Origin: Escherichia coli
GTDB lineage: Bacteria; Pseudomonadota; Gammaproteobacteria; Enterobacterales; Enterobacteriaceae
Length of the DNA stretch: 64,000 nucleotides
Strand: one strand, 5' to 3'
Assembly: GCF_003334255.1 (NCBI RefSeq)
Contig: NZ_QOWU01000014.1
Numbering within the stretch: position 1 is the first letter of the stretch; each line of letters starts with the position of its first letter. Position numbers and translations under genes: made by a program. Under the pieces are notes generated by a model. It saw only the letters and a program-made list of their open reading frames with translations, had not been told where the DNA came from and did no database searches. This document shows, one piece after another, positions 2 through 64,000 of the stretch.

Positions 2-670
2 TTCAATATCCTGGCGGTGTGCGTACGCGGTGGGGCGATGATGTATTACGTCACATGGATTTTGGGCACGCCGGAAGTGTTTGTCGCTTTTCTCACCACT
101 TATTGCGTGGGTAACCTGATTGGTTCCGCACTGGCAAAACCTCTGACCGACTGGAAATGTAAAGTCACTATCTTCTGGTGGACGAACGCCCTGCTGGCAG
201 TGATTAGCCTCGCGATGTTCTTTGTTCCCATGCAGGCCAGCATCACTATGTTTGTCTTCATCTTCGTGATTGGTGTGTTGCATCAACTGGTGACACCTAT
301 CCAGTGGGTAATGATGTCCGATACCGTCGACTACGGCGAGTGGTGCAATGGTAAACGCCTGACCGGGATCAGTTTTGCTGGCACGCTGTTTGTGCTCAAA
401 CTGGGGTTGGCCTTCGGCGGCGCTCTTATCGGCTGGATGCTGGCTTATGGCGGATATGATGCGGCAGAAAAAGCGCAGAACAGCGCCACGATTAGCATCA
501 TTATTGCGCTATTCACGATTGTTCCGGCGATCTGTTATTTGCTGAGCGCGATTATCGCTAAACGCTACTACTCACTCACGACGCACAATCTGAAAACCGT
601 TATGGAACAGCTGGCTCAGGGTAAACGCCGTTGCCAGCAACAATTCACCTCTCAAGAAGTGCAGAACTAA
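2..670 (+). CDS. yicJ: GPH-family sugar:cation symporter YicJ, C-terminal part (5' end lies outside window)
   Basis: ORF track 17..670 is an in-frame open tail reaching the window edge; hydrophobic transporter-like sequence; directly upstream of yicI as in E. coli. Confidence 0.8.
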   Translation, partial: FNILAVCVRGGAMMYYVTWILGTPEVFVAFLTTYCVGNLIGSALAKPLTDWKCKVTIFWWTNALLAVISLAMFFVPMQASITMFVFIFVIGVLHQLVTPIQWVMMSDTVDYGEWCNGKRLTGISFAGTLFVLKLGLAFGGALIGWMLAYGGYDAAEKAQNSATISIIIALFTIVPAICYLLSAIIAKRYYSLTTHNLKTVMEQLAQGKRRCQQQFTSQEVQN

Positions 671-679
671 GGAACGGCA

Positions 680-2998
680 ATGAAAATTAGCGATGGAAAC
701 TGGTTGATTCAACCTGGCCTCAATTTGATTCACCCGCTTCAGGTGTTCGAGGTTGAACAGCAGGATAATGAAATGGTGGTCTATGCTGCCCCCCGTGATG
801 TGCGTGAACGTACCTGGCAGCTTGATACGCCTTTATTTACGTTGCGCTTTTTCTCCCCACAGGAAGGTATTGTCGGTGTGCGGATTGAGCATTTTCAGGG
901 GGCGCTGAATAACGGTCCTCATTATCCGCTCAATATTTTGCAGGACGTGAAGGTCACAATCGAAAACACAGAACGTTATGCTGAGTTTAAAAGTGGCAAC
1001 TTAAGCGCGCGTGTCAGCAAAGGTGAGTTCTGGTCACTGGATTTTCTGCGCAACGGCGAACGTATTACCGGTAGTCAGGTGAAAAATAATGGCTACGTGC
1101 AGGACACGAATAATCAACGCAATTATATGTTTGAGCGGCTTGATCTTGGCGTTGGCGAAACAGTTTACGGTCTGGGAGAGCGCTTTACTGCCCTGGTGCG
1201 CAATGGCCAGACGGTAGAGACCTGGAACCGGGACGGCGGCACAAGTACTGAACAGGCGTATAAAAATATCCCGTTCTACATGACTAACCGTGGTTATGGG
1301 GTACTGGTCAATCATCCCCAGTGTGTCTCTTTTGAAGTGGGATCGGAGAAAGTCTCCAAAGTGCAGTTCAGCGTTGAGAGTGAATATCTCGAATACTTTG
1401 TTATCGACGGCCCGACGCCGAAAGCGGTACTTGATCGTTATACCCGCTTTACTGGTCGTCCGGCGCTGCCGCCCGCGTGGTCCTTCGGCCTGTGGCTAAC
1501 CACTTCATTTACCACCAACTACGACGAAGCGACGGTAAACAGCTTTATCGATGGTATGGCGGAACGCAATCTGCCGCTGCATGTTTTCCACTTTGACTGT
1601 TTCTGGATGAAAGCCTTCCAGTGGTGCGATTTTGAGTGGGACCCGCTGACTTTCCCTGACCCGGAAGGGATGATCCGCCGCCTGAAAGCGAAAGGACTGA
1701 AAATCTGCGTCTGGATTAACCCCTATATCGGTCAAAAATCCCCCGTCTTTAAAGAGTTACAAGAGAAAGGCTATTTACTCAAACGCCCGGACGGTTCGCT
1801 ATGGCAGTGGGATAAATGGCAGCCAGGTCTGGCGATTTATGACTTTACCAATCCGGATGCCTGCAAATGGTACGCCGACAAACTGAAAGGTCTGGTCGCG
1901 ATGGGCGTTGATTGCTTTAAGACCGACTTTGGCGAACGTATCCCAACTGATGTTCAGTGGTTTGACGGTTCCGATCCGCAGAAAATGCATAACCATTATG
2001 CGTACATCTACAACGAACTGGTGTGGAACGTGCTCAAGGACACCGTTGGTGAGGAAGAAGCTGTCTTGTTTGCCCGCTCGGCCTCCGTCGGTGCGCAGAA
2101 ATTCCCGGTACACTGGGGTGGCGATTGTTACGCTAACTACGAATCAATGGCGGAAAGCCTGCGCGGTGGTTTGTCTATTGGCCTTTCAGGTTTTGGCTTC
2201 TGGAGCCACGATATCGGCGGCTTTGAAAATACCGCTCCGGCGCACGTTTACAAACGCTGGTGCGCGTTTGGTTTGCTCTCCAGCCATAGCCGTTTACACG
2301 GTAGCAAATCTTATCGTGTGCCGTGGGCCTACGATGATGAGTCCTGTGATGTGGTGCGCTTCTTCACGCAACTGAAATGCCGCATGATGCCGTATCTGTA
2401 TCGTGAAGCTGCGCGTGCGAACGCGCGGGGTACGCCGATGATGCGGGCCATGATGATGGAGTTCCCGGACGATCCGGCTTGTGATTACCTTGACCGTCAA
2501 TACATGTTAGGCGACAACGTGATGGTTGCGCCGGTGTTCACTGAAGCGGGCGATGTGCAGTTCTACCTGCCGGAAGGTCGCTGGACACACCTGTGGCACA
2601 ACGATGAACTCGACGGTAGTCGCTGGCATAAACAGCAGCACGGCTTCCTGAGTCTGCCCGTTTATGTGCGTGATAACACTCTACTGGCGCTGGGCAACAA
2701 CGATCAACGTCCCGATTACGTGTGGCACGAAGGCACGGCATTCCACCTCTTTAATCTGCAAGACGGGCATGAAGCCGTCTGTGAAGTGCCCGCTGCTGAC
2801 GGATCGGTGATCTTTACTTTAAAAGCAGCACGTACTGGCAACACGATTACTGTGACTGGTGCGGGCGAGGCGAAGAACTGGACACTGTGCCTGCGCAATG
2901 TTGTGAAAGTAAATGGTCTGCAAGACGGTTCGCAGGCTGAAAGTGAGCAGGGGCTGGTGGTGAAGCCTCAAGGGAATGCGCTGACAATTACGTTGTAA
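680..2998 (+). CDS. yicI: alpha-xylosidase (GH31)
   Basis: 772 aa ORF; length and sequence match E. coli YicI; 10 nt after yicJ stop (operon). Confidence 0.93.
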
Positions 2999-3012
2999 TC
3001 TATTGATGGAAT

Positions 3013-3039
3013 GCCGGGTACGTCTGAGTCGTACCCGGC
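3013..3039. terminator. bidirectional hairpin terminator between convergent yicI and yicH
   Basis: Inverted repeat gccgggtacgtctgagtcgtacccggc. Confidence 0.6.
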
Positions 3040-3050
3040 GAGATTGATGT

Positions 3051-4760
3051 TTACCGCACCGGCTCCGTCGATGTAACTTCACCGCTGGAAACGATGCCAG
3101 CATTCATGGTTTGAGTCACTTGCTGCTTTGCGGCGTTCACGGCATGCAATTGCCCGCTAACCGTAGGTTTCAACGGGACATTGGCCTGAATATCGCCACT
3201 GGCGGTAAGCTGAATATTGCCGTCGCCAGTCAACGGTAATTCAGGCCATCCCCACTGTTGCAAAATATTCACCGGCACACCGCGTCCATTCAGGCTGATA
3301 TGTGTCTGACGTTGTGGCGTTTGTGAAACACTGGCGGTGGCTTCCAGAATGCCTTTTTCAGTAAATGCACTCAGTTCGCTGATATTCACCGTGCTGCTGT
3401 TGGCGGTCAGCGCCAGCGACGGGCGACGAACATCAACACGATTGAATGTCGCGGCGGCGGCATTCAGATTCGCCGAGCCACTCCAGACGCCCCATTTATG
3501 ATCGGTAACCAGCGTCAGGTTGGCACCGTAACCATCGAGCGCGGTGAGCTGCCACGGGAAGTCAGGGTCGATATCAATGATCAGATTGCGGCTGGCGCTA
3601 AATCTCTTCAGTTGCAGGCTGTTTAACCAACCGGGTGTCGTTTCCATCCACAACTGTTGCCAGTTTTTCGGCAAGGTATATTCCAGCCCGGCAATTGCCG
3701 CATCATCAAGGATCAACGTTTTCCCGTCACGCAGCCAGTTCCCTGACGTTCTGACCATACCCCCTTCCCAGCGGCTGGTGAACTGGCGCAGCGCTACGCC
3801 CTGCGGGGAAAATTCCGTGTTTATAATCGGGTCAAATAAATGCAGCGAACCATAAATGAACTCGCTAGCGTTCATCGACAGTTTGCCTTCCTGTGTCTGC
3901 CAGTCATCTTTACTGAAGGTCATGTTGCGCAAGCTGAGATCGAGGTCGGTCACCGCCCAGTCCGGACCTTGCAAACGAGCATCGATCACTTCCAGGCGAC
4001 CAATCTGCAACGACGGGACAGAGCGTAATGGCGCAAAGAAGTCGGTTAGCGATTTTTCGCTTTGTAGACGTATATCCGCCATGCGCAGGTTTTCCACTTG
4101 CCAGCTGCCGTCGGCGTTACGCTGCGCGTTTCCGGTTAATGTCCCGCGGGCGATGTCGGCACCCAGGTTAGTCAGCGTAACGCGATCGTTATCAATACTG
4201 CCTTCAATCAGTACATTGGTGGCAGGAACATCATTGAGCGAAAGCGATCCGGCACTAAACTGAATCTGCGCCTTCGTACCCAGCACTTTACCGGCTTTTG
4301 GTGACCACGGAACTACGCCGCCATTTACCCGCTGCGCGCTCAGTTTCCATTCGCTATTCGGGCTATTAAACGCCATATCACGCAGTTGCAGACGATCGGC
4401 TTTGAACGGTAGCGGCGCGGTCTGGTCGGTGAGATTCAGCGTCCCGTTTTCCAGCAGGATGGTATCGACATGGCGTGGTTCGGTCAGTTGCCGACTGCTT
4501 AGCGCAATGTCGACACTTTTGGCCACCAGGGTCGCGGGCTGGCCATCACGACCAAACGTGACGTTCTCCAGCACGATATGAGATGGCGCGGAAAAACGGT
4601 GATCCATCGCCCCGAAGGCCAGATGATAGTCGCTATTCTCGGAAACCCATGCGCTGATATGTTCTGCTCCCCAGCGGGTTTGCAGAAGAAAATAGAGGCC
4701 AGCGATCGCCACTAACAGAGCGATGAGAATGTAGAGAAGCAGCTTCCCAATAAATTTCAT
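3051..4760 (-). CDS. yicH: AsmA-family outer membrane biogenesis protein YicH
   Basis: ORF 3051..4784 with N-terminal signal-anchor (MKFIGKLLLYILIALLVAIAGLYF); start trimmed to Met9. Confidence 0.85.
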   Translation of the reverse strand: MKFIGKLLLYILIALLVAIAGLYFLLQTRWGAEHISAWVSENSDYHLAFGAMDHRFSAPSHIVLENVTFGRDGQPATLVAKSVDIALSSRQLTEPRHVDTILLENGTLNLTDQTAPLPFKADRLQLRDMAFNSPNSEWKLSAQRVNGGVVPWSPKAGKVLGTKAQIQFSAGSLSLNDVPATNVLIEGSIDNDRVTLTNLGADIARGTLTGNAQRNADGSWQVENLRMADIRLQSEKSLTDFFAPLRSVPSLQIGRLEVIDARLQGPDWAVTDLDLSLRNMTFSKDDWQTQEGKLSMNASEFIYGSLHLFDPIINTEFSPQGVALRQFTSRWEGGMVRTSGNWLRDGKTLILDDAAIAGLEYTLPKNWQQLWMETTPGWLNSLQLKRFSASRNLIIDIDPDFPWQLTALDGYGANLTLVTDHKWGVWSGSANLNAAAATFNRVDVRRPSLALTANSSTVNISELSAFTEKGILEATASVSQTPQRQTHISLNGRGVPVNILQQWGWPELPLTGDGNIQLTASGDIQANVPLKPTVSGQLHAVNAAKQQVTQTMNAGIVSSGEVTSTEPVR

Positions 4761-4880
4761 GGTCTTCCATCCCGTGAAATGCACATAAGGGAGTTATGCA
4801 CGATTTACGCGCAATCCTCAAGGCGGGAATGGTTAAAGAGGTGAGACTGCGGCGGTAATTATCTTACCGCCGCCAGTGAA

Positions 4881-6272
4881 TTACTGTTTTTCTGGTGGGA
4901 AAATCAGATTCAGCACGATGGCAGTAATACCGCCCGCGGCGATCCCGGAGGAGAGCAGGTTTTTCAGCCATTCAGGGGCAAACTGCAAAATCAGCGGCTG
5001 CTGAGACACGCCCAGACCAACCGCCAGCGACAGCGCGATAATCAGAATCGCCCGACGGTTCAGCGGCTCACGAGAAACGATACGCACACCGGAGGCGGCG
5101 ATGGTGCCAAACATTACAAGCGTTGCGCCGCCCAGAACCGGTTCTGGAATGTGTTGTACAAAACCGCTCACTGCCGGGAACAGACCCAGCACGATCAACA
5201 TCAGCGCGACGACAAAACCGACATAGCGGCTGGCAACACCAGTCAACTGGATCACTCCGTTGTTTTGCCCGAAGCAGGAGTTCGGGAAGGTGTTAAACAC
5301 CGCCGAAACAAACGAGTTCAGGCCGTTTGCCAGCACGCCGCCTTTCAGGCGTTTCATGTACAGCGGACCGGACACTGGCTGTTCGGAAACGTCAGAGGTC
5401 GCCGTGATATCGCCAATGGTTTCCAGCGAAGTGATCATAAAGACCAGCATCAGCGGCAGCAGCAGACTCCATTCAATGCCAAGACCGTAATAGAGCGGCG
5501 TTGGCACCATAATCAGTTCTTGCGTCATAGGTTCGTTGCTTTCTGGCAACATGCCCATAAACCACGCCAGCGCATATCCGGCCGCCATCGCAATTACCAG
5601 TGAGGCCACGCGTAAGTAAGGGTTACGTTGACGGTTAAGCAGGATAATTAAGGCTAAGACCACGCCTGCCAGCAGCAGATTTTTCGGTGCGCCGAAGGTG
5701 TTATCGCTCATGGCTGCGTAACCGCCGCCAATGGACGTTAACCCAACCTGAATTAGCGACAGGCCGATAATCATCACCACAACGCCAGAAACCAGCGGCG
5801 TAATAATGCGGCGCGCCAGATGCAGAACGCGGGAGATCACCATCTCGGTGCAACTTGCCAGCATCAACGTGCCGAACAAAGCCGCCATCATGGTAGGAAC
5901 ATCAGCACCACCGGTTTTCAGCGCGGTACCGCCCATAATCAGCGGGGCAACAAAGTTGAAGCTGGTGCCCTGAATAGACAACAGCCCGGAGCCAACCGGA
6001 CCCCAGGCCTTAATTTGAATAATCGATGCCACACCGGAGGCAAACAGCGACATACTAATAATGTGTTGCGTGTCTTGTGCCGGTAAACCCAGCGCCTGGC
6101 AGATTAATAGCGCTGGCGTGATCACCGCAACGAACATCGCCAGCAGATGCTGACAGGCGGCAAACAGGGTTTGAGGAAGCGGCGGACGATCTTCAAGACG
6201 GTAAATCAGTTCGCTGTTTTGAGTCTGCGCAACCGGTTGCGCATTTTCTGACTCGAGGGTGGAAACAGACAT
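4881..6272 (-). CDS. xanP: xanthine permease (NCS2 family)
   Basis: 466 aa ORF, polytopic membrane protein; synteny yicH-xanP-gltS; start trimmed to Met4. Confidence 0.88.
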
Positions 6273-62004: not shown

Positions 62005-62463
62005 GGGGGAGGGGGGAGATTATGGAACTTTGCTCCTTGTAAGGACTAATTATTTTTGCATATTACTTCATTAGCTGCGATGATTTTTCTTTAATATTCA
62101 TTATGTTAATAAGTTCTGGATGAGTGTGCTCTCATTGGATTTTTTATCCGTCTTGTTCTGCCGCAGGATGAGACTATACATCGTCGAGATCGCAATGATG
62201 ATATGAGTTGTTCCTCCTGCGACGGCTCTAATCAAAAAAGAGCAGGAGTGCTTTTCCATCTATTGCGATGATGGCTTTATTATCTGAAGGATGACAGTCA
62301 CATTTAAAAAATATTTAATCTATAGATCACAATGTAGGGTCATGGAATATATGTATACAACTATTTTCTTCTTCACTTTTAATTATCGTATTCATTATAA
62401 AACTAAGTTAAAAAAACTCCTGGAGAGTGAGTTATTAATATATTTTTAAATAAAATTAAGTTA

Positions 62464-62984
62464 TCATTCATCGATGCACTTTATAGAATCATCAATGGCC
62501 ATAATAGTACTATTAACTCTCAATTTTATATTTTTATCATCACTACAAATATTAACTGAATTTATATCAATGATTTTTTTATTCTTATCTTTTATTTTAT
62601 TTACTGTTTCAATGCAATCAGCGGCAAGTTGGAGTGGATTTAGATTTTTCAGATATGGTCTTATGATCTTTCCCTTACTTAATAAATAGCATGTATAGGA
62701 TTCGGAAAGTCCAGCATCTATTTTGTACCTCATTATATTAGATAAGGATGTGAGAAATTCCTTGTTATCATTCGCAGCCATATATGCCAGTCCGAGTTCA
62801 GCCTCTGCGGCCTTACAGGCAAAATAGCTTAGTGAACACGCTTTTCGTCCCTCTTTAGTACTGGCTGATATTAGTGCCCATAATATTGCTTTGTCTGCCA
62901 AATCTAACTCTCTCTGAAATTGTCTTGCAGTAACTGCACTCGCAGAAATAGAGAAAAAAATACAATTGTTAATAATCTTGCCAT
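62464..62984 (-). CDS. Sel1-like repeat protein, putative Rhs-toxin immunity protein; in-frame ORF covers 62464..62901 only, upstream ATG (62982..62984) with signal peptide is out of frame across a T7 tract
   Basis: ORF track 62464..62901 starts at TTG; ATG 5 nt after the upstream CT ORF stop encodes MARLLTIVFF.. then frame is lost in homopolymer at 62954..62960; low GC. Confidence 0.45.
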
Positions 62985-62989
62985 ATTTT

Positions 62990-63600
62990 TTAGTCCGTAA
63001 CTGTTAATGTGCTATCTGGCTCTGAAAATATTAACTCATTTAATTTTTGCATGTCATTAGATAAACCAGTTATACAACCCTCGGAACAGAATCGAGGTCC
63101 TAAAGACGGACCAAAAGCGTTTAAACAACTATGTATTGAAAATCCATTGCGATTATAAGTTCCTGTATTAACTGACGGTACTAATCGTATGCCGTCAGGT
63201 TTTCTATTGCTTGCTCCCGGGTCATTAACATTCCAACTCCATAGGCCTTGAGGTATTGGCCATCTATTTATAAATGTGTACAACGGGGATTATTTTTACA
63301 TTGCATATTATTACCAGAAGCGACTGGAATACTAAGCACATCATAAAAATTATCATCACATGGTATATCTGAAACACACGAAAGCATACCTAAAGTTATG
63401 CTGTATAAACAGGTGGCTAATCCCAAGGGGATCGATTCCAGAAATCGGGTTCAACGGATACTGATAAAAATTCCACCTACCTTCCAGCCCAATCGGAGCC
63501 TGAGTGTTATACCGCCCCTGCTGCGGTTAATGTTACCGATAATAGTTATAGTACAGCCCTGATTCATCATCATACTACTGCTGCGGCAGTCTGATGAACT
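62990..63600 (-). pseudogene. degenerate orphan Rhs fragment: Rhs core C-terminal remnant (..[45 protein letters not shown]) plus C-terminal toxin-tip coding sequence split over three frames
   Basis: Manual translation of minus strand; ORF track shows only the 97 aa tail 62990..63283; stops and frame changes interrupt the core motif; no intact start. Confidence 0.55.
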
Positions 63601-63607
63601 ATTGCTT

Positions 63608-63982
63608 TTACGGATTCTCCTTATTCTTCCTTCTATCCATTCGCTTTAGCTTTTTGAGCTCTTGAAGTTTGCTCTTTGCATCAATATTACCGTTATTTAC
63701 AGCGAATTCCATCCAATAAATAGCTCTATTCAAATTATAATATTCTGATAATGTTGGATTTGTATCTGATAAAAAGACCCCATAATTAAACTGCGCTGTA
63801 ACATTCCCCTGAGATGCTGATCTTTCCAAGAATCGCAATTGTTTGTAAATGTTATTTTTAGTAAAGCAGTAATATTGATATAGTCGAAATGATGCCTCTG
63901 AATCACCATGTTGTGATTTATACTTCAGTTTCATCAACTTTTCTTCACTTAAATCATAGGTCATTGCTGTAGACCCCATCAT
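63608..63982 (-). CDS. Sel1-like repeat protein, putative immunity protein of the upstream Rhs toxin module
   Basis: 124 aa low-GC ORF with Sel1/TPR-like repeats (AQFNYGVFL..., AIYWMEFAVNNG); directly upstream of the Rhs core remnant. Confidence 0.5.
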   Translation of the reverse strand: MMGSTAMTYDLSEEKLMKLKYKSQHGDSEASFRLYQYYCFTKNNIYKQLRFLERSASQGNVTAQFNYGVFLSDTNPTLSEYYNLNRAIYWMEFAVNNGNIDAKSKLQELKKLKRMDRRKNKENP

Positions 63983-64000
63983 ACTTTCGTTTTGTTTTAT

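Follow-up and report, generated by a model that had tools for sequence, protein, structure and literature searches.

Orphan toxin/immunity modules occur downstream of rhs and cdi genes. The immunity family that concerns us here, Imm57, was defined as a mostly α-helical immunity protein with conserved D, SE, and C positions, linked to Tox-LD-peptidase toxins (Zhang et al. 2012, PMC3482391), and no member of this family has been experimentally characterized in the literature that we searched. On the toxin side, the DUF2778/Tlde1 effector of Salmonella is an L,D-carboxypeptidase that cuts peptidoglycan stem peptides and is toxic only in the periplasm; Shigella and Escherichia have this domain fused to the C-terminus of Rhs proteins, and its immunity proteins bear Sec signals or membrane anchors (Sibinelli-Sousa et al., bioRxiv 10.1101/2020.02.18.954545). 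In E. coli MG1655, the gene of interest to the present work, yibV (b4615), is annotated as "PF15596 family protein YibV", starting from an internal TTG and encoding 111 aa, and it is given in EcoCyc/RefSeq as a PF15596 protein "surrounded by pseudogenes" (PMC11551758).

The yibV Locus and Its Reading Frames

We analyzed a stretch of 64,000 nucleotides from E. coli (contig NZ_QOWU01000014.1), referred to as the window throughout, at one end of which lies a copy of this locus. The gene order at the yibV locus is rhsA, yibA, yibJ, yibG, yibS/yibW (Rhs fragments), yibV, yibU, yibH, yibI, and mtlA, with yibV as the immunity gene in an orphan Rhs toxin/immunity module downstream of rhsA. A megablast search shows that 3,700 of the 5,426 complete E. 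coli genomes carry the region 62400-63300, chromosomal in every case, with the feature under the match annotated as "Imm57 family immunity protein". In K-12 AG100 and WCHEC035123, PGAP labels the gene at the same place "Imm57 family immunity protein, frameshifted", and labels the Rhs core remnant [quoted passage not shown], such that public annotation already records the frameshift as well as the family and the Rhs context. The features discussed in this work are as follows:

62464..62984, minus strand: yibV, read here as a pseudogene of the Imm57 immunity family, running from its ancestral ATG to a TGA stop (521 nt; 522 nt in intact alleles)
62954..62960, minus strand: T7 run (A7 on the plus strand), position of the probable inactivating 1-nt loss (T8 or C+T7 in intact alleles)
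62935..62984, minus strand: region that codes in the T8 form for the ancestral signal-peptide-like N-terminus, MARLLTIVFFFSISASA, and that is here out of frame with the mature domain
62904..62984, minus strand: 26-codon ORF in the ATG frame, MARLLTIVFFSLFLRVQLLQDNFRES and then a stop
62464..62901, minus strand: 145-aa ORF from an internal TTG, with the entire Imm57 domain and without the export signal
62574..62580, minus strand: second homopolymer of yibV (coding-strand A7), at which T7 genomes frequently carry secondary frameshifts
62990..63387, minus strand: K-12 yibW, an orphan C-terminal toxin tip of a Rhs protein in a degraded state, of the L,D-peptidase type (Tlde1/DUF2778)
63356..63574, minus strand: Rhs core remnant, K-12 yibS, ending at a DPxGL-type core/tip boundary (GIDPLGI)
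63608..64000, minus strand: yibG, a Sel1-repeat protein annotated as "sel1 repeat family protein", which is part of the preceding orphan module and continues beyond the window

The preliminary description of this DNA had pointed to an ATG at 62982..62984, from which translation halts after 26 codons, and to a long ORF (62464..62901) that lies in another frame and is open back past this ATG, with a T7 run at 62954..62960 in between; each of these coordinates is confirmed. The toxin-tip ORF (62990..63283, 97 aa, minus strand) terminates in TAA at 62992-62990, the yibV ATG follows 5 nt past this stop codon (62984-62982), and the frame of the 145-aa ORF remains open upstream via ...KKYGKIINNCIFFSISASAV..., beyond the yibV ATG. 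As written, the yibV of the window contains no uninterrupted frame from the conserved start of the family to the stop codon, and in alignments with intact alleles the frame differs at the T tract alone. When one T is inserted in the T7 run of the window sequence (minus strand), the two frames fuse, as had been proposed, into a 173-aa ORF, MARLLTIVFFFSISASAVTARQFQ..., and this T8-repaired protein is identical at the amino acid level (Nd = 0) to the product of the natural T8 allele of O121:H19 FWSEC0006, annotated as WP_000113243.1. Since the repaired protein both matches Imm57 from end to end, as described below, and has a natural T8 twin, the pattern is not one that has arisen by chance.

Three observations on the local sequence may be recorded alongside. 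Position 62976 of the window is an A where 16 of 16 compared E. coli genomes have a G (AGA vs AGG, synonymous in the ATG frame), and a 901-nt query taken from the window finds a top match of at most 99.9% identity in the genome collection. In addition, a cluster in nr (P0008), with 788 sequences under the name "Imm57 family immunity protein", starts with MNNCIFFSISASAV. This matches an ATT start at 62971-62973, in the downstream frame of the T7 allele, and looks like a choice made in annotation to get round the frameshift.

The partner toxin tip is itself damaged. Its intact 135-aa homologue in 23CRST026 is annotated as a "tlde1 domain-containing protein" (Tlde1_dom, E = 2.2e-7), and this tlde1-domain gene stops 4 nt before the Imm57 ATG. 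Relative to 23CRST026, the window tip carries a CAA to TAA change and a 1-nt deletion near 63268-63285, and also a 9-nt in-frame deletion, with a lesion near 63317. The C-terminal part of the 97-aa residual ORF still gives weak matches, to Tlde1_dom (E = 0.008, 38 residues) and to YkuD (E = 0.038), and the window tip has no significant Tlde1_dom match in an intact ORF joined to a delivery domain, the Rhs core upstream of it being a 219-nt fragment (its boundary was read from the translation of the ORF at 63356..63454). The degraded form of the tip is present in about 3,480 genomes, and no full-length Rhs protein bearing this tip was located in the E. coli collection. Judged from its sequence, the tip is a broken remnant, and the window appears to have no live cognate toxin. 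The earlier proposal of a periplasmic immunity protein tightly coupled to the upstream toxin tip thus stands as far as gene order is concerned, with the immunity gene directly after the tip, but not as a working pair, as the tip is broken here.

With regard to the surroundings of the module, K-12 yibG begins with MKACLLLFFYFSFICQLHGA, which resembles a signal peptide of its own, while the window yibG runs off the end of the window, and a shorter, different version of yibG is found in some strains (99-3165 type). In 23CRST026, an intact ISAs1-family transposase lies just upstream of the intact tip (4340-5877 of the sequence compared), and K-12 and the window (about 62100-62300) have just a short H-repeat/ISAs1 remnant (yibU), downstream of yibV. 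A promoter and terminator scan of 62300-63700 gave no signal above shuffled expectation.

Family and Putative Export Signal of the Intact Protein

The Pfam family Imm57 (PF15596) matches the T8-repaired window protein with E = 1.9e-47 over model positions 2-100 of 100, the domain occupying residues 30-127 of the 173-aa protein, and it matches the intact 23CRST026 allele over the full model with E = 2e-44. The gene had initially been described as Sel1-like; however, neither the intact allele nor the repaired window protein shows a Sel1 (PF08238) match at E ≤ 10 in Pfam, and the top fold matches include no Sel1/TPR structure, consisting of weak generic helical repeats. We therefore dropped the Sel1 identity in favor of the full-length Imm57 match, the Sel1 protein of this locus being the neighboring yibG. 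Searches of NCBIfam returned no family for the intact protein, the truncated protein, or the toxin tip, and a sequence search of the PDB returned no match below E = 0.01.

The AlphaFold model of the Imm57 protein is all-helical, with a pLDDT of 94.4. In an alignment of 85 sequences, C124 and C147 are invariant and D90, C99, and C170 are nearly so, and the family consensus GGLSEDY is represented by AGLSESY in the window. We found 177 Imm57 relatives among the 1.84 billion cluster representatives searched, of which 105 are 160-200 aa in length. Two arrangements involving Imm57 sequences are worth noting. The first is an E. coli protein of 148 aa (P0044) that continues in frame from a Rhs core fragment into the 45 C-terminal residues of Imm57, suggesting that some strain may have lost the tip, together with most of the immunity gene, through a deletion or recombination event. 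The second is an Imm57 homologue, 55% identical and with a clear signal peptide, which is found in metagenome-derived contigs in a toxin-less array of immunity genes that also contains a second, weak Imm57, Rap1a, MafI2, and DUF7668, located between housekeeping genes (L017 4217-6528; L018 1769-4080); this array indicates that, elsewhere, genes of the Imm57 type are retained as orphans.

A signal peptide with an AxA cleavage site had been anticipated on the repaired protein, and the N-terminus of the T8 form bears this out by a hydropathy heuristic: it reads MAR / LLTIVFFFSIS / ASA-V, with an arginine at position 3, an A-S-A site, and a hydropathy maximum of 2.77, and in this way shows a charged n-region, a hydrophobic h-region, and small residues at -3/-1. 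By the same heuristic, in which a strongly hydrophobic 10-residue stretch is sought in the first 30 residues and internal 30-residue blocks serve as controls, a hydrophobic N-terminal stretch is present in 97 of the 105 full-length Imm57 representatives, vs 0-14 of 105 for the internal blocks. In the window as written, by comparison, the signal region is out of frame with the Imm57 domain. The four conserved cysteines would suit a disulfide-bonded periplasmic protein, and the periplasmic idea put forward in the preliminary description fits the family in each of these respects, as well as in its association with Tlde1/DUF2778 toxins, which are toxic in the periplasm (bioRxiv 10.1101/2020.02.18.954545). 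Taken on these grounds, the intact protein is best read as a putative Sec-exported periplasmic inhibitor of a Tlde1-type toxin, where we infer the export, the disulfide bonds, the binding of the toxin, and the protection that would have been lost with the frame.

Natural Alleles of the T Tract and of a Second Homopolymer

Comparison of the length of the T tract across E. coli genomes, as had been recommended, reveals three types of allele: the window type (allele A), with GTA followed by T7, which is frameshifted; allele B, with GTA followed by T8, which has an intact 522-nt ORF; and the divergent allele C, with GTGC followed by T7 (or a variant thereof), both fetched copies of which are intact. 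Among the 3,331 genomes with the A/B sequence type, approximately 3,232 (97%) have T7, 65 (2%, including O121:H19) have T8, 22 (0.7%) have T6, and ~0 have T9, where these counts derive from BLAST identity bands obtained with 61-86-nt queries centered on the tract (exact vs one-off) and include long-read assemblies prone to homopolymer errors, such that a few percent of the calls may be misassigned. Allele C is found in ~316 of the 5,426 complete E. coli genomes, 138 of these being exact matches, and all but one of the non-exact matches that were sampled differ by a substitution and carry no indel. The intact form persists in ~10% of the locus-bearing E. coli genomes, O121:H19 being one example. 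As all intact lineages have eight pyrimidines at the tract, the T7 of the window is most simply explained as a one-base loss. The possibility had also been raised that orthologues in other genomes might start at the internal TTG and lack a signal peptide, or that the tract might be T7 throughout, with neither T8 alleles nor a conserved upstream frame; we find instead that intact orthologues start at the ATG, and that both T8 alleles and the upstream frame are present in other genomes.

These counts bear directly on whether the lesion is real. Homopolymers are a classic site of sequencing and assembly errors, and T8 alleles do occur, so that the sequenced strain might in fact carry T8 and an intact gene. 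However, exactly seven T are found in ~3,232 of the 3,331 genomes of this sequence type, from many laboratories and platforms and including MG1655, BL21, O111:H8, and EDL933-type O157:H7, and PGAP flags the frameshift throughout. The presence of T7 in ~3,232 complete genomes, MG1655 among them, identifies it as a real inherited allele, and we regard the chance that the window merely reflects a sequencing error as practically negligible.

All 12 of the T8 alleles that were fetched are annotated as an intact 522-nt CDS, with five recurring protein accessions between them, and three of the 12 genomes encode exactly the repaired window protein. Some of these alleles, in O121:H19 FWSEC0006, NCTC9064, T2, 99-3165, O6:H16 2011EL-1370-2, and FMU073332, are on a haplotype that is 99.6% identical to the window, and the rest are on other haplotypes, with a different upstream toxin-tip sequence in DETEC-C31, O157:H16 Santai, B2, PSJ-14, EC529, and ABW_A19. 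Overall, the T8 alleles fall on a small number of haplotypes marked by linked SNPs, as seen for example in several independent O121:H19 genomes.

Further downstream, the second homopolymer of yibV also varies in length, with A7 in 2,130, A8 in 998, and A6 in 103 genomes of the A/B sequence type; A8 is found in K-12 and in EDL933 and other O157:H7 strains, and A6 in CT29 and O111:H8. In contrast, all 14 of the frame-intact alleles that we fetched have A7. When the frequency in the population is used as the basis for comparison, A6 or A8 is found in 0 of the 12 T8 alleles vs ~33% expected by random draw, which corresponds to P of about 0.009, or of about 0.14 if just five T8 haplotypes are counted as independent. 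This comparison was used instead of a Fisher test of the A-run between the fetched intact and frameshifted alleles (P = 0.002), which we set aside because some of the T7 genomes had been chosen for their odd lengths.

The same data allow one to assess phase variation, in which the T run would act as a contingency tract, with slipped-strand mispairing giving an ON state at T8 and an OFF state at T7 or T6. Three tract lengths do exist in the species (22 genomes with T6, ~3,232 with T7, and 65 with T8), and T8 is found on a haplotype 99.6% identical to the window, as would be expected if the tract switched. Nevertheless, the distribution is one-sided, with 97% of the genomes at T7, and the way in which T8 recurs on the same few haplotypes, along with linked SNPs and the same protein accessions, looks like inheritance rather than switching. 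In addition, the second-site A6/A8 lesion that is absent from all 12 T8 alleles is present in ~33% of the genomes of the sequence type, and in this third of the population a return to T8 could not restore the gene. A tract of 7-8 nt is also short for a contingency locus in repair-proficient E. coli. Occasional reversion from T7 to T8 may occur; a dedicated phase switch is, in our assessment, very unlikely. Of the options offered at the outset for this gene (pseudogene, slipped-strand variability, or sequencing error), it is therefore the first that stands, while switching is poorly supported by the 97% share of T7, and error is contradicted by the ~3,232 genomes that share this allele.

Probable Decay of yibV and Comparison with Known Systems

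Comparing allele C, which is divergent and intact, with the window allele after repair gives a dN/dS of ~0.3, indicating that yibV was under purifying selection before the frameshift, and the rest of the yibV ORF is still intact in 63% of the genomes, the window among them. The mRNA of K-12 yibV is detectable and AZT-responsive (PMC11228462), and so the locus is transcribed.

The last two of these observations would be compatible with recoding, in which slippage during transcription, or a ribosome slipping by -1 in its P site on U7, could supply a small amount of exported Imm57, and thereby partial immunity, in T7/A7 strains. Slippage on A/T runs is a known phenomenon, and a -1 shift at GUA-UUU-UUU-U would yield exactly the T8 product. 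The tract is short, however, and it forms an imperfect tandem-slippage heptamer (an A precedes the run), while about a third of the genomes of the sequence type are without the downstream frame, which argues against selection for the slippage product. An intact remainder is, moreover, the expected appearance of a young pseudogene at identities of at least 99%. We consider recoding to be distinctly unlikely on this basis. A broader version of this idea is that the T7/A7 homopolymer might act as a slow reversible valve, through which either a trickle of U7 slippage or rare T7 to T8 reversion would re-arm an orphan immunity gene, and if this were true, T8 reversion would re-arm lineages that meet competitors with Tlde1-type Rhs toxins; we would call this idea improbable.

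One may also ask whether a truncated product could be functional in its own right, be it a TTG-initiated cytoplasmic YibV or the 26-aa peptide with a role of its own. MG1655 annotates a 111-aa YibV from the TTG, the entire Pfam domain is contained in the 145-aa ORF, and the 26-aa peptide is hydrophobic, all of which would be in keeping with such a role. Against this, all intact orthologues, together with 97 of the 105 family representatives, begin farther upstream and include an export signal, and the four conserved cysteines point to an oxidizing compartment. Furthermore, the A8 frameshift leaves the K-12 version without the last two conserved cysteines, the C-terminal end varies by lineage (A6, A7, or A8), and there is no promoter signal above chance in the scan described above. 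A functional truncated product thus appears extremely unlikely.

Taken together, the slips in the A-run and the broken tip argue for a fixed, decaying pseudogene and not a phase switch. This reading is the one favored by the evidence and agrees with the RefSeq/PGAP annotation, and we consider it very probable that yibV is an Imm57 immunity gene of an orphan Rhs module, its product presumably once exported against a Tlde1-type toxin, that was inactivated by a T8 to T7 change and is now decaying. According to this reading, ancestral yibV would have encoded a 173-aa Imm57-family protein, the first ~17 residues of which would serve as a Sec signal peptide, such that the all-helical, four-cysteine mature domain would be exported to the periplasm, where its binding would block an L,D-peptidase domain of the Tlde1/DUF2778 type that competitors deliver on a Rhs protein. 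In the window lineage, one T would have been lost from the T8 run at codons 9-11, with translation from the ATG then predicted to stop after 26 codons, leaving the Imm57 domain readable just from weak internal starts (ATT or TTG), without the export signal. As internal-start products lack this signal, no periplasmic immunity protein would be made, and any such product would be expected to stay in the cytoplasm, unable to meet the toxin. The lesion would be old and inherited, with yibV now probably decaying neutrally beside a partner tip that carries a nonsense codon and frameshifts of its own.

The significance of these observations beyond curation is small. They would nevertheless explain K-12 yibV as the frameshifted remnant of a signal-bearing Imm57 protein, as opposed to a 111-aa cytoplasmic protein, and they provide a natural pair of T8 and T7 alleles, one base apart in the tract, that could be used to test Imm57 function. 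More generally, yibV offers a small, clean example of the decay of an orphan toxin/immunity module by homopolymer slippage.

The closest known counterpart is K-12 yibV itself (b4615), with which the window shares the locus, the T7 frameshift, the flanks (yibG, the yibS/W remnants, and yibH), and 99.7% DNA identity. K-12 differs in having an additional +1 frameshift (A8) and a product of 111 aa, whereas the window, with A7, has a single lesion. With the Imm57 family as a whole, the window copy shares the full-length HMM match, the helical fold, the conserved D/SE/C positions, and a neighboring toxin of the LD-peptidase type, but it differs in being frameshifted. The likeness to Sel1-repeat proteins such as YibG extends to small, helical, signal-bearing putative immunity proteins located in the same Rhs array.

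Among functionally described systems, the Tlde1/Tldi1 (Tae5/Tai5) T6SS pair of Salmonella Typhimurium shares the toxin domain family, DUF2778/Tlde1_dom, as well as the logic of a periplasmic peptidoglycan-attacking toxin countered by a Sec-signal-bearing immunity protein (bioRxiv 10.1101/2020.02.18.954545). The two differ in their immunity families, which is DUF2195 there and Imm57 here, and in the toxin, which is a stand-alone effector there and a degraded Rhs C-terminal tip here. Finally, the yibV locus shares with the orphan modules of rhs and cdi loci the array of a Rhs core fragment, a tip, and an immunity gene after a full-length rhs gene, and, as in these modules, it adjoins an ISAs1/H-repeat remnant; what sets it apart is that, in most E. 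coli, the toxin and the immunity gene alike are pseudogenes.
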